The notes below the pieces were generated by a model, which ran no database searches, was not told the DNA's origin, and saw only the letters and a program-made list of their open reading frames with translations. The position numbers and the translations under genes were made by a program. DNA of 64,000 nucleotides from Methanocella sp. (GTDB lineage Archaea > Thermoproteota > Bathyarchaeia > Bathyarchaeales > Bathycorpusculaceae): NCBI GenBank assembly GCA_050261115.1, contig JBLNCY010000006.1, positions 1 to 64,000 of the forward strand, read 5' to 3'. Positions 10,178-64,000 of the stretch are shown piece after piece. The stretch's first letter is position 1; every line of letters begins with the position of its first letter.

Positions 10178-11902
10178 TTACATATTCTCAAGGCGAGCAG
10201 AAAAGTTCTTGAGCCCTTGAACAAACGGCGCAAGCGGCGGCACTTCATCAGCAATGATGCAGTCAATGACCGCAGGCTTATTCTCTTCGATAACTTTGGG
10301 CAGCAACGCTTCTAGTTCACCTGGACGCTCTATAGTGTAGCCTTTTGCGCCTAAGCCCTCGGCTACTTTAGCGGCATCAATCCGCTTAAATCGAGTAGTA
10401 ACCGTTTTTTCACCTAGGTTTAGCCGCTGGAACTCATGAACCAAGCCGAGTTTAGCGTTGTTCTGCACTATCCACACAACAGGCAGGTCATAACTTACGG
10501 CGGTTTGGATTTCCATACCGTTCATGAGGAAGCAGCCATCGCCGACCACTGAAACGACTGGACGATCGGGAGCGGCAAGTTTACCACCTATTGCAGCGGC
10601 GGTCGAGTAACCCATGGTTAGCAGCCCGAATGGGCAGATAAACGAGTCGGGGGTCCGCGCTTGCATATAGTGGATAGCCCAACACATCGGGTTACCAGTA
10701 TCGACGAATAGTATTGCATCTTTGGGTAAAGCACGCTCAAGCTCTTTGAACATACGTTGGGGCAGTATGGGCACAGCGTTTGATTCCATTTTTTCTGGGC
10801 CTACGCATATACCGACTTCACGGCGGATTCTTGCAACCCGCTCAACTCCGTTGCTCTTGGGTTTGTGGTCTTCGACTACATAGCGCATGATGCGGAATGA
10901 GATTTCGTTAATGATCGTTCGAGCGTCGCCGATGAGTGCGATGTCAGTTTTGTAATTTTTACCGATGTCGGTACCGTCGATATTTATGTGGATTAGGCAT
11001 TTGGTTGGCGCGAGACGTGGATCCCAGGAGCTAGTTGTCATTTGGTTAAGGCTTGAGCCGATTACTAGTAGTACGTCGGTTTGGCCTTCTGTTAAGCACC
11101 GTTCCGCAACAGGGGAACCGCAGAATCCAAGCACACCCAACGAAAGCGGGTGATCCTCCGGGAAGGCCCCTTTTGCTTTGGGGGAAGTAGCGACTGGGAT
11201 GCAGAGGGTTTCGGCTAAGTCACGGATTTCTTCTGTTGCTTTGGATGCTACTGCGCCACTGCCAATCAAGATAACGGGGTTTTGGGCGTTAACAAGCTGC
11301 TCAGCGGCTTCGATTACTAGGCGGCGGTCAAAATATTCGCTTGGCGGACGATAGGAAGTGGAGATTGGGAGTTCTGCTTCTATCTCTTCAGCCATAATGT
11401 CCTTAGGCAAACTCAAGTGGACAGGGCCTTTTTTCCCTGTCAAAGCTGCCCGAAGAGCTACTCGAATTTCCTCGTCGACCCGGTACTTAGAGATAACCAT
11501 GGAGCTGAATTTGGTGATGGGGTCAAACATTAAGACCGAGTCAACACCGTTCTTGGTGGAATCTTGGAATGCGCCGCCACCGGATATCGAGGTTGCCACT
11601 TGACCGGTGAGGACCATTACGGGGATGTTATCGAGGTATGAGGTTGCGACGCCTGTTATGAGATTGGTTGCACCTGGGCCTGAGGTTGCAAAGCATACGC
11701 CTAGGGTGCCTTTGACGCGTGCGTAACCGTCAGCCATGAATGCTGCGCCTTCTTCGTGTTTGGCGAGGATGGGTTTAATCTTAGTTTGCCGGTTACATGC
11801 CTCAAAAAGGGGCAGTAAACTGAGCCCTGGAACGCCGAAGATGTATTCGACGCCCTCGTTTTCTAGATACTTTAGTAGTAGATCAGCGCTTGTTATTTTC
11901 AT
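10178..11902 (-). CDS. TPP-dependent enzyme, acetolactate-synthase large-subunit-like
   Basis: HEEGAAFMADGYAR, TSGPGATN, GDGCFLMN...QNN TPP motif; no ilvH/ilvC nearby. Confidence 0.9.
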   Translation of the reverse strand: MKITSADLLLKYLENEGVEYIFGVPGLSLLPLFEACNRQTKIKPILAKHEEGAAFMADGYARVKGTLGVCFATSGPGATNLITGVATSYLDNIPVMVLTGQVATSISGGGAFQDSTKNGVDSVLMFDPITKFSSMVISKYRVDEEIRVALRAALTGKKGPVHLSLPKDIMAEEIEAELPISTSYRPPSEYFDRRLVIEAAEQLVNAQNPVILIGSGAVASKATEEIRDLAETLCIPVATSPKAKGAFPEDHPLSLGVLGFCGSPVAERCLTEGQTDVLLVIGSSLNQMTTSSWDPRLAPTKCLIHINIDGTDIGKNYKTDIALIGDARTIINEISFRIMRYVVEDHKPKSNGVERVARIRREVGICVGPEKMESNAVPILPQRMFKELERALPKDAILFVDTGNPMCWAIHYMQARTPDSFICPFGLLTMGYSTAAAIGGKLAAPDRPVVSVVGDGCFLMNGMEIQTAVSYDLPVVWIVQNNAKLGLVHEFQRLNLGEKTVTTRFKRIDAAKVAEGLGAKGYTIERPGELEALLPKVIEENKPAVIDCIIADEVPPLAPFVQGLKNFSARLENM

Positions 11903-11911
11903 CGAATCAGC

Positions 11912-12253
11912 CTATGTTAACGCTTTCACTGCTTCCTCGACTGTGGGGTAGATTTGGAAGATGCGGTTTAACCCCGATATTTCAAAGACTTCCATAACAT
12001 ATGGCTTAACGTTGCAGAGCACCATCTTGCCGCCTGCACGCGACAAGCCCTTAGATGCCGTTAACAGTACACGTAGTCCTGCACTGGCAAGGTACTCCGT
12101 TTGGCTAAAGTCACATGCAATTTTTTTTGTGCCCTCAGACACCAGACGGTTTAATTCTACCTCAACTTGACTTGCGGTGTAGGCGTCAAACCTTCGTAGG
12201 ATACCAACAATTTTTGCGTCGCCAACAGTTTTAACTTCAATACTGCTCATCAC
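11912..12253 (-). CDS. STAS-domain anti-sigma-factor antagonist (RsbV/SpoIIAA-like)
   Basis: DFSQTEYLASAGLRVLL (phospho-Ser position retained), VFEISGL..IF.I. Confidence 0.92.
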   Translation of the reverse strand: MMSSIEVKTVGDAKIVGILRRFDAYTASQVEVELNRLVSEGTKKIACDFSQTEYLASAGLRVLLTASKGLSRAGGKMVLCNVKPYVMEVFEISGLNRIFQIYPTVEEAVKALT

Positions 12254-12259
12254 AAAACC

Positions 12260-12691
12260 TCATTTTAGGATTTTAGTCATCGTTAACTCGTTTTCCATAC
12301 CACGGGAGGCGTATTTAACGGTTTGCATGTAGCGTTTCATAAAGAAAATCCCCAAGCCCCCGACCTTGCGGTCCTCTAAGGCGGCATCTACGTTGGGATT
12401 CTGCACCTGTTGGGGGTCAAAGGGGATGCCGCTATCTCTTAGCTGCACAGTGAACTCTTTGGGAGCAGTTAACTTACAGCGTATAGTGATTTGTCCGCCA
12501 GATTGTCCTGTGTAGGCATGCTCAATTATGTTGGTTAAGGCTTCATCTACAGCCAATTGTACGTCAAATATGTCCTTGTCGATGGCGCCAAGCTGCCGCA
12601 TTATTTTTGCTAAGAAGGCGCTTGCTACTTCGAGATTTCTAAGGTCACTGTCCATTTTTAGCTCTGACCAACCATCGTTACTCATACACAC
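12260..12691 (-). CDS. RsbW/SpoIIAB-like serine kinase (GHKL ATPase fold)
   Basis: LAVDEALTNIIEHAY N-box, DSG..FDP, GGLGIFFM. Confidence 0.92.
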   Translation of the reverse strand: MCMSNDGWSELKMDSDLRNLEVASAFLAKIMRQLGAIDKDIFDVQLAVDEALTNIIEHAYTGQSGGQITIRCKLTAPKEFTVQLRDSGIPFDPQQVQNPNVDAALEDRKVGGLGIFFMKRYMQTVKYASRGMENELTMTKILK

Positions 12692-57720: not shown

Positions 57721-58692
57721 TTAGACTACAAGGTCAGCCATGTCTACACTGCGCTCATAAATTTGCCGCAGAAACTGAACCACAGCCAAAATCTGAGGCA
57801 ACAAATCCACCGAAGAATCCTTCACAGCCGCCTCAATTCGGGAACAGTTGTCATCGACCTTTCCCCTCATCTCACGAACATTTTCAGCTAGTGCGATATC
57901 CTTACATAAAAAGGCCTTGAACGCTTGCTCATTGGCATCTACACAGGTTGACTGCAACGCCAGCACCAGTCTCCTAAGTTCATCGGATAGCTTAGTGTTC
58001 TTGAGTTCAAGCGTGCTCTGCGCAATCTGAACGCAGGCGTCACCTATACCCTCAATAAAGCCCGCAATAAGACGGTAGTCCACGCATTCAATAGGAATGA
58101 TACCTAGCTTCTCGCTAAGTCGGGGGCTCTGCAAAATAGTACGCAGTATCCTAACAAGCAAAAAATAGAATTTGTTGTTCTCTACATCACGTTCGATAAC
58201 GTTCTTTGCTAAGTCCATATCAGAAGAGACAAAACTGCTAGCCGCATCACGGATCATCCGCACGGCGCTAGCCTGGTTACGCTGCAGGATTTTTCCCGGT
58301 GAAGTGAAGGGTTGCTGCATAAGGCACTGAAGCGTCATCATTGAGGGGGTTTCCTCAACAATCATAAGCCCAGCTAGCGAGTTCGCAGTGGATTTGATGA
58401 GGTTACGCATGTTTGAGTCGATGCGGTCTTTGGCTTCTATTTTTATGATATCATAACCTAAGAGGTAGCGGCCGATGATTTCGCGGCTCAAATAAGGATT
58501 AACCTTTAACGACACAGATTTAGGTTCGGGTTCAGAGGCGAATTGAGTGTCTACAAACAGTTTACCATCGCTGGTTACTTCGAGGTTAACTTGGGAGCCC
58601 TTCTGCAAGTTATGGCTCTTAGCCCATTCACGGGGTAAACAAACAAAAAACGTGCCAGTGGGAGTCTGCTGAATTTTACGCACTTCACTCAT
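57721..58692 (-). CDS. AbrB-domain + PhoU phosphate uptake regulator
   Basis: RKIQ....TFFVCLPREWA N-terminal AbrB; YLLGYD.I; two PhoU helical repeats. Confidence 0.88.
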   Translation of the reverse strand: MSEVRKIQQTPTGTFFVCLPREWAKSHNLQKGSQVNLEVTSDGKLFVDTQFASEPEPKSVSLKVNPYLSREIIGRYLLGYDIIKIEAKDRIDSNMRNLIKSTANSLAGLMIVEETPSMMTLQCLMQQPFTSPGKILQRNQASAVRMIRDAASSFVSSDMDLAKNVIERDVENNKFYFLLVRILRTILQSPRLSEKLGIIPIECVDYRLIAGFIEGIGDACVQIAQSTLELKNTKLSDELRRLVLALQSTCVDANEQAFKAFLCKDIALAENVREMRGKVDDNCSRIEAAVKDSSVDLLPQILAVVQFLRQIYERSVDMADLVV

Positions 58693-58873: not shown

Positions 58874-60496
58874 ATGAGTAGGCAAGAGAAACTCCAAAAA
58901 GCCATCGAGGCAGCCATCATTGCCGGCTACCAACTAAACAGCGAAGCTTTTGAGTTCCTTACCCAAAATGTGGACACAATGGACCCCGAAGCCGTAATGA
59001 ATCTAGCATTAATGCAGTTATCTGACTTAGAGGATAAGCCCATCTTCATCGACCGAGATAGACTCGTGTCAGTTATTCATCAATTAGCAGTTGCAGAAAT
59101 GCAACAAGCCTTAGAAAACCAAACCGAAACACAACCAACCAATGAACCCAATCCAGTTAACATATTCCCGGAAGCACAAAGCTACACCGAGCCAACCATA
59201 AACGCGGTCGATGCCAGCGACTACTTTTACCCCTACGCCAAAGACATATCCTCCGAGCTTATAATCATAGAAGACCCCACAGGTAAACTCACCTCAAACG
59301 GAACAATACAAGAATACACAGCGCTCTTCCAAGACCGCTTCAGACGGGTCGAAAAAATACTCCGCAACCGCATGGATGTCCGCTCAGCCACACCGCTAGC
59401 CGAAGCGGTCAAATCCCAACCGAAATCAAAACTCAAAGTCATCTGCATGCTAACAGAAAAACGCGACAGCAAAAACAACACCATCCTCTCAGTTGAAGAC
59501 CCAAACAGCAGCGCCACCATCGTCATCCCCCACAAGGCACCTGAAGAAGTAAAAAAGAAGGCACTAACACTATTGCCCGACACCGTCTTTTGTGCGGCAG
59601 TCATCAAAACCCGAACCAATCTGCTCATGGCAGAAGACATTATCCTCCCAGAAGTCGGCCGAAAAGCACCTAAACGGGCCCAAGAACCTGTCTATGCAGT
59701 GCTGACTTCAGATGTACATGTAGGTAGCAATAAATTTACCAAAGATGCATTTCGCCGTTTCATTCTTTGGCTAAGAGGTAAGTATGGCACCCCACAAATG
59801 CGTGAAGTCGCAGGCCGCGTCAAGTACCTCTTAATCGCAGGTGACATCGTCGACGGCGTAGGTATTTATCCCGGTCAACAAACAGAACTCACCATACGTG
59901 ATGTACGCAAGCAATACAACTTTGCCATCAAATATCTAGAAAAAATACCCAGCTACATAGAAATCGTGCTCTCACCAGGCAACCACGACGCCGCGCGTAA
60001 ATCCCAACCTCAGCCAGCCATCCCAGAAGGATACCTAACCGCAATCAAAGATAAACCAAACATTCACTCTGTTGGCAGCCCCTGCTACCTAAGCATACAT
60101 GGCGTTGAAGTCTTGATGTATCACGGTGTAAGCCTAAATGACATCATAGGGGTAGTGCCGGGGATGGATAATGATCATCCTGAGAAGTCCATGAGGCTAC
60201 TTATGCAGGATCGCCACTTGGCACCTATGTATGGCGGTAAAACCATGCTTTCGCCTGAGAACCGCGACTATATGGTTGTCGAGCGAGTCCCCGACATCTT
60301 TCATGCGGGTCACATTCACGTTTTAGGCTACTGTAACTATCGGGGGGTACTTGTAGTTAATTCGGGGGGCTGGCAACTGCAGACTGAGTATATGGAAAAG
60401 TTAGGGCTGATGCCTACGCCTGGGAAGGTTCCTGTAATCAACTTGCAAACAATGGAGATTACGGTTCTGGATTTCCTAAACCCCATTGAGAGTTAG
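58874..60496 (+). CDS. polD1: DNA polymerase D small subunit DP1
   Basis: OB fold then SDVHVGS, AGDIVDG.GIYPGQ, PGNHD, YHG, RHLAP.YG, GHIH. Confidence 0.95.
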   Translation: MSRQEKLQKAIEAAIIAGYQLNSEAFEFLTQNVDTMDPEAVMNLALMQLSDLEDKPIFIDRDRLVSVIHQLAVAEMQQALENQTETQPTNEPNPVNIFPEAQSYTEPTINAVDASDYFYPYAKDISSELIIIEDPTGKLTSNGTIQEYTALFQDRFRRVEKILRNRMDVRSATPLAEAVKSQPKSKLKVICMLTEKRDSKNNTILSVEDPNSSATIVIPHKAPEEVKKKALTLLPDTVFCAAVIKTRTNLLMAEDIILPEVGRKAPKRAQEPVYAVLTSDVHVGSNKFTKDAFRRFILWLRGKYGTPQMREVAGRVKYLLIAGDIVDGVGIYPGQQTELTIRDVRKQYNFAIKYLEKIPSYIEIVLSPGNHDAARKSQPQPAIPEGYLTAIKDKPNIHSVGSPCYLSIHGVEVLMYHGVSLNDIIGVVPGMDNDHPEKSMRLLMQDRHLAPMYGGKTMLSPENRDYMVVERVPDIFHAGHIHVLGYCNYRGVLVVNSGGWQLQTEYMEKLGLMPTPGKVPVINLQTMEITVLDFLNPIES

Positions 60497-61716
60497 GTTT
60501 TGTGGAGGCTTTTTGGCTGATAATTTAGCAGAGGGCCAAAACGTGCGTCTGTACCAAATACATCTTTTATTAAGCCACGGCTAATTTCAAGACGAATCTT
60601 CTTAGTTCGCCCATACCGGCCCATGCTAACAACTTTGGCGTTGACAAGCCCCATAGAATCAAGCTCGTTTACAAGCGTTCCGAGGCGTCGCTGGGTAAGT
60701 AATCCTGCGCCCATTTCGCCACAGAGTTCATTGTATATGTCATAGATTTCTCCTGTGGATGCACTGTGCTTGTTGAGGTGATATACGCTTAGCAGGACAA
60801 GTTTTGAGTGCAACGTCAAGTTTTTTAGAGCTTCGATTACACGGTTGTGTTCTATGTGTTTTTCAGCTTGGCGAACGTGTTCTTCTGTGATGGTGGTTGC
60901 ACCGTTCCGTTCGGCTACTTCACCGGCTACTCTGAGCAGGTCTAGAGCTCTTCTGGCATCGCCATGCTCTGCTGCGGCCAAGGCTGCGGATATGCTAAGT
61001 GCAGACTCAGTCAAAGCACCATCCATAAATGCAAGCTTTGATCGTTCAAACAAAATATTTCGGAGTTCGCTTGCATCGTAGGGTCGGAATACGAGTTCTT
61101 CTTCACTTAAGGAGCTGAATACACGGGGGTCTAGGAATTCTTTTAGGCGGAGGTCGTTTGATATGCCGATGATTGAGACTTTGCTTTTGTTGAGTGTTTC
61201 GTTGATGCGGGTGAGTTCGTACATGAAGGCGTCGCCTCGGTCTTTTATGAGGGCATCTACCTCGTCTAGTACGATGATGAATATAATGTAAGATTGGTCT
61301 AGGCCTGAGCGGAATCTATCGAAAACTTCGCCGACTGACAACCCAGTAAAGGGAATGGATAGCCCAACACTTTGGCTAAGGGCGGCAAAAACGCGGTATT
61401 CTGAACCGGTCATGCGGCAGTTTATGTAACAGAATTTTATTTGGGCCCCATACTCTTTGGCTTTTGATTCGAGGTGGCTAAGGACGTATTTGGCTACTGC
61501 GGTTTTTCCTGTGCCGGTTTTGCCGTAGATGAATATGTTTGAGCAGCGGGCATTTCTTAGTACAGGGGCTACTGTGGATCCTAGGAGTCGGATTTGTTCT
61601 TCTCGGTGGGGGAGCTTTTCTGGTAGATAGTCATGTCTTAGGACTTCGCGGTCTTTGAAGAGTCTTGGGCCTTTTACGAAATTGTCAAACACATCATCAA
61701 GTACAGAGTTTCCCAT
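60493..61716 (-). CDS. cdc6: Orc1/Cdc6 replication initiator
   Basis: LPHREEQI, YGKTGTGKT, VLDEVD, GDARRALDLLR, GRYGRT wing. Confidence 0.97.
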   Translation of the reverse strand: MGNSVLDDVFDNFVKGPRLFKDREVLRHDYLPEKLPHREEQIRLLGSTVAPVLRNARCSNIFIYGKTGTGKTAVAKYVLSHLESKAKEYGAQIKFCYINCRMTGSEYRVFAALSQSVGLSIPFTGLSVGEVFDRFRSGLDQSYIIFIIVLDEVDALIKDRGDAFMYELTRINETLNKSKVSIIGISNDLRLKEFLDPRVFSSLSEEELVFRPYDASELRNILFERSKLAFMDGALTESALSISAALAAAEHGDARRALDLLRVAGEVAERNGATTITEEHVRQAEKHIEHNRVIEALKNLTLHSKLVLLSVYHLNKHSASTGEIYDIYNELCGEMGAGLLTQRRLGTLVNELDSMGLVNAKVVSMGRYGRTKKIRLEISRGLIKDVFGTDARFGPLLNYQPKSLHKT

Positions 61717-61747
61717 TGTTTGCCCACCCTATTTTTTTTCAGAGGTA

Positions 61748-62340
61748 CAACCGTTATTTCGAGTGGAACAGATAAAGGCTACAGTACAAAAAAATGGTTT
61801 TGAACAACAACATTCCTAAAAGAAGACAAAAACAGGCAGAAACAACCTATCAACCCAAGGATAGACTCACCCGTTGATTTCTACTGGAAAAATCAACTAA
61901 CTTTACACTAACCCATATTATAGTATAACATAATAATATACTCTGAGTTGTAAATTAGCTTTGAATATATTAATGATTGTTGTCCAAAAAAATAGATAGA
62001 CTCTCAGAAATTATTTTTCGACCGCTTCTCAACTTCTTTTTTCCCCTAAAACTCTCGAGAGGAAAAAGAGGGGTGCCTCTCTGATCTGAATTCCATGGAA
62101 GAAAGCTTGTAAGCTGTCCCTTTGCTTCAATATTTTGCCATGGCTTGCTTTGCTCCTTACCAAAGTTCGCCTAGTGACCTCTTGATTGCCAGGTTTGGGT
62201 GGCTTAGGGGTTCACAAAACTGTGAATACATGTGAAATAGCAATAAATCTGTAGCTTTATCAAGCTTCTTTTTCGGAGATTTACTTGTTTTCTGTCTGTT
62301 AACAGTGAATGTGGCACCCCTTGGCTTCTACTGGAGAACT
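61748..62340. other. probable replication origin (oriC) with ORB boxes and AT-rich segment
   Basis: Minus-strand GTTCCACTCGAAATAACGG (61751-61769), TTCCAGTAGAAATCAACGGGTG (61867-61888 approx.), CTCCAGTAGAAGCCAAGGGGTG (62315-62336); plus-strand CTCGAGAGGAAAAAGAGGGGTG (62054-62075); AT-rich 61911-62000; directly upstream of cdc6. Confidence 0.85.
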
Positions 62341-62530
62341 CGATTTAAGCTGGAAAGATAAATCTTTTAACCGTTTGTTTTTCTGTGAAGCTTGTAATTC
62401 TAAAAACAATTATAAAATAAGTTATTTACTGAAAATAAGCTTGAATTGGGCTTTTTATTTTGGCTGTTTTCACCATCACAGTTATATGCTGTGAAGCTGT
62501 AGAGTTGTGAACAACCTAGGTGTCTAATTA

Positions 62531-62962
62531 GTGCCGACTCGCAAAATGCGCGTGGAGCTCTTTGACAATGAGGGCAATCGGTATACCATTGCCTTTGAGG
62601 GTCAAGTGACCCGCGACAAAGCTCTACGCCTGCTTGATCTTGTTGAATTGCTAGGCGGCACACCGAATGAAACATCAAATATAACAAGTCCAGCAGTACC
62701 CAGTCCTCGTCAACTGTCTCGTTTTGAGAAGGTTCAAGCAGTAATTCAGAAGAATTTCCCCTTAATCTGGTTCTCATCCAAAGACATTCAGGCAGTCTAT
62801 GAGCAGGAATTCAAAGAACCTGTCAGCCTAAGCACCATATCCACCTACCTCTCCAGAATGGCCTCAAAAGGCATGCTTATGCGCACTGGCACCTCCAACA
62901 ACCTCAAGTACAAGACTGCCCCAAACATTCCAGCGACAATCAAGCAGCGTATAATAAAGTAG
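62531..62962 (+). CDS. origin-adjacent protein with small N-terminal domain and C-terminal winged helix
   Basis: KMRVELFD.EG.RYTI.FEG.VTRDK; FSSKDIQ..YE......LSTISTYLSRM..KG.L.R wHTH pattern. Confidence 0.8.
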   Translation: MPTRKMRVELFDNEGNRYTIAFEGQVTRDKALRLLDLVELLGGTPNETSNITSPAVPSPRQLSRFEKVQAVIQKNFPLIWFSSKDIQAVYEQEFKEPVSLSTISTYLSRMASKGMLMRTGTSNNLKYKTAPNIPATIKQRIIK

Positions 62963-62963
62963 C

Positions 62964-63009
62964 TTCACAAGCCCTTCACAACAGTTCACCACTGTTCACA
63001 GGGTTCACA
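62964..63009 (+). repeat. array of five TTCAC(A/C) direct repeats at about 10-bp period
   Basis: Starts at 62964, 62975, 62985, 62995, 63004. Confidence 0.8.
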
Positions 63010-63085
63010 ACATGCTTGTATTAGGTTGACGATTATTGGTAGCTGCCCATATTTTTTAGCATGCTATTTAGTTGAGTTGAGTTGC

Positions 63086-63145
63086 GTCTCTTGCTTTGCC
63101 AAGAGACCCCTCCTTATATATATAGAGTCAACCTCGGGTTGAACC
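63086..63145 (-). repeat. dispersed intergenic element copy 6
   Basis: Minus strand GGTTCAACCCGAGGTTGACTCTATATATATAAGGAGGGGTCTCTTGGCAAAGCAAGAGAC; upstream GGTATGCTTTC also found before copy 3. Confidence 0.85.
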
Positions 63146-63243
63146 TGGTCTTGAAAGCATACCTGCAAAAATACTAGCCTCACGGAACCCTTTAGTAGTA
63201 AAGCCCAGGAGACTGTCTATTTTGCAGTGGAAAATAAATTCGG

Positions 63244-64000
63244 CTAGGTTACGGCTGGCGAAGGCTCTGTCTTCTGCAGCAGGGCCTCCATCTCCTTTTT
63301 AATTGTATATCGGAACGGAATCTTACCAGCCTCCCTCTCCACATAACCTTCCTCATAAATCCTTTTCATCAACCTAGCCGTATGCTCCCTGCTCAAGCCA
63401 AGACGCTCTTTAATTTCCGGTGCAGTCTTAGCGCCCTCCTTAGAGAGCATCTCCAGCACTGCAATCTCTGTCTCGGTCAACGCTGCAAGAGCCTTGTCAC
63501 GTTTGATAGGAACAACCGGAAGCGCCATTTCACTTCGAGCCTCTATTGGAGCCGGCGGGGCAGTAGCTAACTTTTGGAGTTGTTCTTCCAACATAGCAAT
63601 TTTTTGTTGCATGGCTTGCTGGGCATTTTGTGCCTCTTGGAGTTTTGCTTGGAGGGTTGCCATTTCGTTTGTGAGCTCTGATTTTAGGGTTGTATTGTTT
63701 TGTGTGATTTCTGCCAAGTTTGCTGTGACGTCCTGGGTTAGAGTTTGATGTATTTGGTTAAGGGCGATGATCTGGGTTTCCAAGGGGTCGATTAGGTTCT
63801 CTAGCCGTTCGGCCTTTCGGTAGCTGGCTTCTGCGGTGGAGTAGCTGCCCTCAACTCTTGTCACCATATTATCAAATTTTTCTGATTGACGTTTTAATTC
63901 ACGGTTAAAACTAAGCACTATATCGCCCAAGAAATCTTTGGCTTTAGCGTATTCTTGTAGGCTCTGTTCATATTGTAGATGAGTTTTTGCGTATTCCTGC
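63244..64000 (-). CDS. coiled-coil protein with C-terminal winged HTH (5'-truncated by window edge)
   Basis: Frame stays open to the edge (QEYAKTHLQYEQSLQEYAKAKDFLGDI...); LTETEIAVLEML..EG.KTAPEIK..LGLSREHTARLMK..YEEGYVER. Confidence 0.8.
   Translation of the reverse strand, partial: QEYAKTHLQYEQSLQEYAKAKDFLGDIVLSFNRELKRQSEKFDNMVTRVEGSYSTAEASYRKAERLENLIDPLETQIIALNQIHQTLTQDVTANLAEITQNNTTLKSELTNEMATLQAKLQEAQNAQQAMQQKIAMLEEQLQKLATAPPAPIEARSEMALPVVPIKRDKALAALTETEIAVLEMLSKEGAKTAPEIKERLGLSREHTARLMKRIYEEGYVEREAGKIPFRYTIKKEMEALLQKTEPSPAVT

Follow-up and report, generated by a model that had tools for sequence, protein, structure and literature searches.

Near the right end of a 64,000-nt stretch of Methanocella sp. 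DNA (Bathyarchaeia; contig JBLNCY010000006.1, positions 1 to 64,000; the whole stretch is hereafter "the window") lies a gene for a winged-helix protein of 143 amino acids (aa), beside a predicted replication origin and among copies of the hexamer TTCACA and its reverse complement TGTGAA. A sequence-only reading had taken this arrangement for an origin-linked segregation or initiation-control system, in which the protein polymerizes on arrays enclosing its gene. Having compared the window with 80 related loci, we find that the hexamers upstream of the gene are better read as putative promoter operators and origin-interleaved sites than as a centromere or iterons.

Layout of the locus

The 143-aa gene is transcribed divergently from orc1/cdc6 (Pfam Cdc6_lid 7e-24, Cdc6_C 7e-24; NCBIfam TIGR02928 422.7 bits, cut-off 181.3), at a distance of 814 nt. 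The spacer between them has the classic layout of an archaeal origin: an origin recognition box (ORB1), an AT-rich stretch, an inverted ORB2, ORB3, and a mini-ORB-like element near the cdc6 start. The features, from left to right, are:

60493..61716, minus strand: initiator gene orc1/cdc6 (407 aa), pointing away from the 143-aa gene
61750..61780, no strand: conserved block with mini-ORB-like TTTCGAGTGGAA (61757-61768), repeat family D2
61868..61894, plus strand: ORB1, CACCC...TTTCTACTGGAAAA, repeat families D1 and D3
61900..62030, no strand: AT-rich putative unwinding element, GC content 0.30-0.33 versus ~0.45-0.5 in the flanks
62053..62077, minus strand: ORB2, inverted relative to ORB1 and ORB3, flanking the AT-rich region; inverted repeat I1 with 62313-62337
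62211..62236, no strand: triple TTCACA-AAAC-TGTGAA-TACA-TGTGAA (62211-62216, 62221-62226, 62231-62236), between ORB2 and ORB3, at -320, -310 and -300 from the start codon
62304..62309, minus strand: variant hexamer AGTGAA (-230), abutting the G-string of ORB3; TGTGAA in many loci
62315..62341, plus strand: ORB3, CACCCC...CTTCTACTGGAGAA, repeat D3, 81% identical to ORB1
62384..62389, minus strand: TGTGAA (-147), within conserved TCTGTGAAGCT
62469..62511, no strand: putative promoter-operator block, TTCACC 62469-62474 (-62), TTATAT 62482-62487, TGTGAA 62490-62495 (-41), TGTGAA 62506-62511 (-25)
62518..62522, plus strand: Shine-Dalgarno-like AGGTG, 8 nt before the GTG start
62531..62962, plus strand: 143-aa gene, with a beta-beta-alpha N-domain (residues 4-41), a linker (~42-60) and a C-terminal winged helix (64-129)
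62964..63009, plus strand: five direct TTCAC(A/C) repeats, start-to-start spacings 11, 10, 10 and 9 nt
63244..64000, minus strand: gene for a coiled-coil protein with a MarR/TrmB winged helix (Pfam MarR 1.2e-7, TrmB 2.5e-7), its 5′ end beyond the window

In Pyrococcus and other archaeal ORBs, the ORB/mini-ORB is described as a 13-bp dyad with invariant TTCC and GAA cores (PMC1904270, in excerpt). The window ORBs at 61868, 62053 and 62315 carry this TTCC...GAA core plus a G-string, with ORB1 reading, on its reverse complement, TTCCAGTAGAA followed by the G-string. The origin linkage that the earlier reading had claimed is strongly supported, as orc1/cdc6, three ORBs and the AT-rich region are all present; the chromosomal origin itself is predicted from ORBs, AT-richness and cdc6 rather than mapped. 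From archaeal promoter geometry, we take TTATAT (62482-62487) to be the TATA box of the 143-aa gene and transcription to start near 62510.

The hexamers cluster around the 143-aa gene

Re-reading the sequence placed all upstream hexamers and downstream repeats where they had been reported, the latter being TTCACA at 62964, 62975, 62995 and 63004 and TTCACC at 62985, all on the plus strand. Over the whole 64 kb and both strands, the hexamer is not enriched (37 matches versus 39.8 ± 6.4 from shuffles). Ten of the 37, however, fall within 799 nt (62211-63009; binomial P = 2.4e-11), whereas the richest 800 nt in 300 first-order Markov simulations held 3.27 matches on average and six at most. At least four same-strand TTCAC within 50 nt occur only once window-wide, at 62964-63004, and Tandem Repeats Finder reports a period-10 array at 62975-63012. 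The clustering is thus real and not due to chance. Elsewhere in the window, two TGTGAA copies (4234/4246) fall within an open reading frame (ORF) of 603 aa and were discarded as probably fortuitous.

Upstream sites are fixed in position across Bathyarchaeia

How general is this arrangement? A genome scan with a close alignment of the protein (A1) matched 599 stretches, of which 259 were confirmed and the best 80 kept as loci. These are metagenome-assembled genomes (MAGs) of Bathyarchaeia, including Bathycorpusculum and several complete chromosomes, and represent the Bathyarchaeia-type protein only (63-86% identity). Two loci (L025, L032) and one homologue record (P0109) bear the labels Acidoferrum, Nanoarchaeia or Betaproteobacteria, probably through binning or labeling errors in public MAGs. 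Gene order was read by tblastn with the window proteins, and spacer conservation from 78 spacers, those of the 77 loci and of the window, aligned with MAFFT.

The order phoU / PolD-DP1 / cdc6 (minus) / spacer / gene (plus) recurs in 77/77 loci that have upstream DNA. In other words, cdc6 lies divergently 5′ of the 143-aa gene in 77 of the 80 loci, and the remaining three (L017, L068, L076) have no upstream DNA. The length of the spacer stays within 779-825 nt in the 77 loci and the window. Counted on both strands, the hexamer is strongly concentrated in this spacer:

cdc6-gene spacer: 517 sites in 62,225 nt, 8.31 per kb
downstream spacer: 99 sites in 33,592 nt, 2.95 per kb
rest of the loci: 413 sites in 799,398 nt, 0.52 per kb

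Local enrichment over background, which the sequence-only reading had suggested checking, is therefore seen both within the window and across the loci. Within the spacer, eight hexamer sites recur at set distances from the start codon, each in 58-77 of the 77 loci:

-320 (plus): present in 76/77
-310 (minus): present in 75/77
-300 (minus): present in 58/77
-230 (minus): GTGAA core in 74/77
-147 (minus): present in 77/77
-62 (plus), TTCACC: present in 76/77
-41 (minus): present in 76/77
-25 (minus): present in 77/77

In the spacer alignment, the hexamers are among the best-conserved columns, comparable to the ORBs and joined by a TATACTCT block, the TATA-like box and AGGTG. Conservation reaches 80-95% or more in the triple block at 62211..62236, at least 95% for ACAGTGAAT at the -230 site, at least 90% for nearly all of 62469..62511, and at least 95% in the columns of AGGTG. 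The start codon is ATG in most loci and GTG in the window. Among the origin elements, ORB1, ORB2 (TCGAGAGGAAA...AGGGGTG) and ORB3 are conserved, the columns of the 61750..61780 block mostly at 90% or more. Clusters of at least three hexamers within 60 nt were met in one other instance in 993 kb, where single hexamers occur at background frequency. The conservation of the upstream sites is strongly supported by these alignments, and their fixed positions, together with this conservation and the confinement of clusters to the locus, argue that they are under selection and specific to it.

The 143-aa protein belongs to a family without a characterized name

The small N-terminal domain, linker and winged helix-turn-helix surmised by the earlier reading match an AlphaFold2 model built on 55 diverse family members (predicted local distance difference test score, pLDDT, 76.4): a beta-hairpin plus helix, a disordered linker (pLDDT below 50 at residues 45-57) and a canonical winged helix. 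The helix LSTxSTYLxR and one tyrosine of the wing show little or no variation among the 55 members. No Pfam or NCBIfam model reaches its cut-off on the protein. The best Pfam match is Penicillinase_R (PF03965; 17.6 bits versus a cut-off of 22.6, E = 0.005), which also matches 27/55 members at E up to 0.01 (best 9.6e-6). Foldseek against the PDB gave weak matches, led by MecI (E = 5e-3) and followed by RosR, BlaI and the Fur DNA-binding domain, such that the structures nearest to the winged helix are DNA-bound repressors; the listed matches span ~70-90 columns, consistent with the winged helix. With a model of a tandem-N-domain member, itself uninformative on packing, the winged helix alone was matched (RosR best, 7.9e-4). 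The top PDB profile match, a pyridoxal-phosphate homeostasis protein (E = 0.0017, query 5-64), was judged spurious.

From 2866 candidates, a word-index search recovered 2851 homologues (E ≤ 0.001). Those listed, 120 in number, are 76-99% identical, their source names are all "hypothetical protein", and nearly all records that name a taxon are Bathyarchaeia or Bathyarchaeota. An exhaustive search of 50%-identity representatives returned 316 at E ≤ 0.001 and 116 at E ≤ 1e-10, and the ESM Atlas matched only the protein's own Bathyarchaeota clusters. The sole functional label, an automated BlaI/MecI/CopY, sits on a distant relative from Geothermarchaeales. We found no description of the family or the motif in the literature searched, a coverage outside which most subscription journals fall. 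A lead to a haloarchaeal "origin-associated protein" was dropped, as the term is absent from PMC3119063 and its other uses mostly concern Oap proteins of OLE RNA. Against plasmids and phages, tblastn gave no homologue of the 143-aa protein.

Linker length ranges across the family from ~15 to more than 150 residues. Four members (P0267, P0268, P0197, P0349) have Q/P-rich linkers longer than 150 residues or two tandem N-domains, and tandem N-domains occur in many members of a subfamily from Halobacteriota bins and Candidatus Methanoperedens nitroreducens (ANME2D_03344). Tandem N-domains and long linkers together indicate that the N-domain and the winged helix are independent units on a tether, which fits a pairing module attached to a DNA reader. 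The N-terminal extensions of longer members contain no Pfam domain and are probably miscalled starts. A prediction of the homodimer (two copies) scored 0.02 against a mark of 0.42; this gives no verdict either way and is not used as evidence.

Which protein reads the hexamers?

We propose that TTCACA/TGTGAA are the recognition sites of a sequence-specific DNA-binding protein, and that the likeliest binder would be the winged-helix protein encoded among them. The alternative that another protein binds and the 143-aa protein is unrelated seems unlikely to us, yet it deserves attention, for position is the sole tie between the 143-aa protein and the motif. Several candidates come to mind: Orc1/Cdc6 acting on degenerate half-ORBs, a second initiator paralogue, the coiled-coil MarR/TrmB neighbor, or an unlinked regulator. 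In favor of the initiator, TGTGAA has GAA in common with the ORB core and one site abuts ORB3. However, TTCAC(A) alone is fixed in the pooled site profiles, with weak flanks and no TTCC. As TTCC is part of the core that defines ORBs and mini-ORBs (PMC1904270, in excerpt), and true ORBs are separately present, the hexamer is not an ORB.

As to the neighbor, the sequence-only reading had correctly noted a converging gene for a coiled-coil/winged-helix protein. In locus L004 (6523-7326, minus), where it is complete, this protein has 267 aa and combines a long coiled coil with a winged helix at its C-terminus, and its gene converges on the 143-aa gene within 500 nt in 66/80 loci. Yet in the other 14/80 the gene is missing from the immediate neighborhood while the hexamer sites remain; its own 5′ flank shows no enrichment (0.27 hexamers per kb); and the protein, with a median identity of 51.7%, is far less conserved than the invariant motif. 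We list the coiled-coil gene as a neighbor, not as an established part of the system.

Putative promoter operators and a possible accessory role at the origin

What might the protein do with these sites? The data show where the hexamers lie and how well they are conserved, the gene order and the domain architecture; binding by this protein, autorepression and any effect on replication are inferred. On our reading, the 143-aa protein would bind the hexamers, repress its own promoter and act as an accessory origin factor, a proposal whose chances we regard as evenly balanced. In archaea, promoter occlusion by way of sites around the TATA box or the start is the usual geometry of repression. Because three of the sites (-62, -41, -25) flank the TATA-like box and the probable start of transcription, the bound protein would repress its own promoter, blocking TBP, TFB or RNA polymerase. 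The five further fixed sites lie between or beside ORB2 and ORB3, interleaved and in register with them, on the right side of the predicted oriC; from there, the same protein would occupy the origin beside Orc1/Cdc6. As a lineage-specific accessory factor, it may affect how the initiator binds or how the helicase is loaded, or tie its own level to the state of the origin. The N-domain on its flexible linker probably pairs winged helices or recruits partners, and a tethered pairing domain would explain why dyads of 10 and 21 nt are tolerated along with direct repeats.

A simpler account would make the protein an ordinary autoregulated transcription factor that controls only its own, and possibly its neighbors', transcription, with oriC adjacency as inherited gene order and the distal sites as remote operators raising the local protein concentration. 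The three best-placed sites are indeed those around the TATA-like box and start, every site lies on the gene's side of the origin and outside the ORB1-DUE-ORB2 core (DUE, DNA-unwinding element), the winged helix is like that of small repressors, and the whole neighborhood (phoU, DP1, cdc6) is syntenic anyway. Nonetheless, eight fixed sites over 300 nt are many for one small gene, and five of them are interleaved with ORB2/ORB3, one abutting the G-string of ORB3. Moreover, the protein is conserved above the PolD small subunit DP1 (median identity over the 80 loci 76.8% versus 69.1%), and the spacer is held to a narrow length. We consider this account rather unlikely, and argue that eight fixed sites, tight spacer length and high protein conservation point beyond housekeeping autoregulation.

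Several observations weigh against autorepression combined with an origin role for the 143-aa protein. The 6-bp core is short, and neither the recognition helix nor the motif varies among the 80 loci, which leaves no co-variation to read between them. The -300 site is absent in 19/77 loci, the downstream array in 54/80, and in 66/80 a neighboring gene codes for a second winged-helix protein. The N-domain found no convincing fold match by Foldseek with either model. The origin prediction draws on ORBs, AT-richness and cdc6 alone, and the hexamers, being outside the ORB1-DUE-ORB2 core, can be explained without an origin role. With these points in the balance, we rate the locus as encoding a putative origin-associated, self-regulated, site-specific DNA-binding factor.

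The downstream array is a variable addition

The earlier reading had the gene enclosed by two arrays; the comparison shows that such enclosure is not a core feature. Up to 110 nt past the stop codon, 54/80 loci have no site, 6/80 have one and 20/80 have two or more. On a quick IQ-TREE phylogeny of Cdc6 plus the 143-aa protein (74 rows; L005, L015, L017, L030, L055, L068 and L076 left out), the presence of the array requires at least seven to eight gains or losses, namely eight changes on the tree, at least seven of them across well-supported branches. On the earlier reading's own refuting condition, absence of the arrays from orthologous loci, the outcome is thus split: the gene, cdc6 and the upstream sites stay together in 77/77, but the downstream array does not, and its absence from most loci means that it cannot be essential. 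Where present, the array begins at the stop codon (in the window, 2 nt past the TAG of ORF 62531-62962) and is helically phased, as the sequence-only reading had held for the window: 28/39 successive same-strand spacings are 10-11 nt and most others are near multiples. The rest of the window's 281-nt 3′ spacer is unconserved even among the closest loci; its segment 63010-63243, including a mini-ORB-like TTTGCAGTGGAA at 63221, was considered as part of the system and rejected, as it is not conserved among the window, L002, L010 and L022.

We turn to what a dispensable array might do. The five phased repeats are a lineage-variable extra cluster, most plausibly a high-avidity sink, decoy or roadblock that would tune the level of free protein. 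For comparison, an ORB cluster downstream of Haloarcula oriC2 has been proposed to titrate its initiator (PMC4010727, in excerpt). Could the repeats instead act in RNA and serve termination or the stability of the mRNA, whether as UUCACA repeats in a 3′ untranslated region or as TTCACA/TGTGAA hairpins, and do so separately from the upstream DNA sites? They do start right at the stop codon on the sense strand, and in one clade (L042, L047, L051, L061, L062) TTCACA-N3-4-TGTGAA dyads, which could fold as hairpins, replace the direct repeats. Yet in the spacer, 5′ of the putative promoter, this hexamer is conserved as well and in either orientation, the 10-11 nt periodicity fits the helical repeat of DNA, and within 61600-63400 a terminator scan found no terminator-like site and an Rfam search no match at E up to 1. 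Action at the RNA level thus strikes us as extremely improbable.

The same variability bears on the segregation or iteron-type system originally proposed, in which the protein would polymerize on gene-flanking arrays and loop the locus. The window itself does suggest such a picture, with phased direct repeats on one side of the gene and oppositely oriented sites upstream, and the N-domain, tandem in some relatives, could self-associate. The flanking arrangement, however, is confined to 20/80 loci, no ParA/SegA-type ATPase is encoded in 14 kb upstream (window) or 6 kb downstream (L004), and plasmid or phage homologues are lacking, as described above. Specifically, Pfam revealed no partition NTPase in 13 ORFs of the window (42.5-57.4 kb) or in six ORFs of L004 (6.5-12.4 kb). 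The fold is neither ribbon-helix-helix nor ParB-like, and the chromosome already has Orc1 and ORBs. For polymerization and looping, we found no support, and a segregation or iteron function is very improbable in our judgment.

Relation to known systems

The nearest system in function is UBP/ucm of Sulfolobales, in which a short conserved non-ORB motif of oriC is bound by a small lineage-restricted protein alongside Orc1 (PMC12141716, in excerpt). The likeness lies in the combination of a small, lineage-restricted candidate protein and a non-ORB motif at a predicted archaeal origin. The differences are manifold. UBP, with 111 aa, forms a beta-rich saddle that swaps a C-terminal strand (PMC12141716, in excerpt), whereas the present protein combines beta-beta-alpha with a winged helix, and UBP is absent from the 13 PDB profile matches (E up to 10) as well as from the matches listed by Foldseek, which are mainly winged-helix regulators. 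According to the same excerpted source, ucm lies inside the unwinding element between inverted ORBs and UBP has more than 300 genomic sites; here, the sites lie outside, starting 134 nt to the right of ORB2 and reaching the gene, and the 993 kb scanned hold one cluster elsewhere, with single hexamers at background. The UBP gene is not described as origin-adjacent or self-flanked in the excerpted source (PMC12141716). Differing in fold, in motif location and in clusters that are locus-specific in the 993 kb scanned, the locus is not a member of the UBP/ucm system.

Haloarcula hispanica oriC2 (downstream) and the cdc6 flanks of Thermococcales carry ORB clusters (PMC4010727, PMC1904270, both in excerpt). 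They resemble the present locus in that an origin gene is flanked by site clusters, with a neighboring cluster proposed as a datA-like titrator in the excerpted sources. Those clusters, however, are ORBs for Orc1/Cdc6, whereas here the motif is a distinct 6-bp one and the flanked gene encodes a small winged-helix protein.

BlaI, MecI and CopY (Penicillinase_R) are the closest match to the DNA-binding domain in both sequence and fold; they, too, are small and bind operators in their own promoter region. Their winged helix is N-terminal and followed by a C-terminal dimerization domain, whereas here the order is reversed and the small N-terminal domain is a different one. No sensor-protease partner of the BlaI/MecI type was seen among the neighbor genes examined in the window and L004.

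Some bacterial transcription factors bind both promoters and oriC, and OmpR/PhoB-type winged helices bind head-to-tail on 10-11 bp direct repeats. Apart from the other domain of life and another initiator, the present protein differs from these in that it has no receiver domain and its homology is that of a generic winged helix. SegB, ParB and ParR, too, are small, bind DNA and have arrays of repeats beside their genes; in contrast, our locus has no adjacent ATPase in the genes examined, a different fold, a chromosomal housekeeping context and no conserved flanking pair. Iteron replicons, finally, are mobile and encode a Rep protein with two winged helices that binds 17-22 bp iterons beside an AT-rich region, as opposed to the one winged helix, 6-bp core at 10-11 bp spacing, chromosomal context with ribosomal-protein genes and lack of plasmid or phage homologues seen here.

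Other elements of the origin neighborhood

Two further elements of the spacer stand apart from the hexamers. The mini-ORB-like TTTCGAGTGGAA lies immediately 5′ of the cdc6 start codon, proximal to the cdc6 promoter, and suggests autoregulation of Orc1/Cdc6. Within the AT-rich element, the TATACTCT block (61937-61944; wider context AATATACTCTGAG) is at least 90% conserved across the 78 aligned spacers although the surrounding unwinding element is variable. Its position resembles that of Sulfolobus ucm, and it may be the site of yet another factor.

On the far side of cdc6, the gene for DP1 (window 58874-60496) abuts the initiator gene, as in Thermococcales. In L004, the gene for the PolD large subunit (DP2 N-terminal domain 4.5e-106, 11569-12432) starts ~5 kb across the origin, such that the origin is bracketed by two PolD genes, DP1 on one side and, in that locus, DP2 on the other. 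At the edge of the neighborhood, window positions 57721-58692 (minus) encode a 323-aa protein with an N-terminal AbrB/MazE-type domain and two PhoU domains, which is found in 70/80 loci.

Implications for archaeal replication control

Archaeal replication control beyond Orc1 and ORBs is barely known. UBP, the one characterized accessory factor, is confined to Sulfolobales and Desulfurococcales, and its authors ask whether other lineages have analogues (PMC12141716, in excerpt). Going further than our data do, the 143-aa protein might be the founding member of an undescribed archaeal family of origin-accessory factors (Bathyarchaeia, with relatives in Methanoperedens and other lineages). Such factors, with their genes at oriC, would recognize a hexamer code set among the ORBs; by bridging sites or contacting Orc1/MCM, their tethered N-domain would license initiation or restrain it, the dose being set by autorepression and lineage-specific decoy arrays. 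We offer this extension tentatively, as a possibility with the chances somewhat against it. A family of this kind would be a functional counterpart, built from unrelated parts, of Sulfolobus UBP or of bacterial oriC regulators.

For the abundant Bathyarchaeia, no genetic system is known to us. A cis/trans module that is compact, conserved and placed at a predicted origin would be a handle for work in vitro, consisting of one small protein and three short DNA fragments. At the same time, the locus gives an annotation handle for a family whose more than 2800 protein clusters lack a functional name. Even if the protein were a mere autoregulator, there would still be a defined architecture of operators and, for the class Bathyarchaeia, a mapped layout of the origin.

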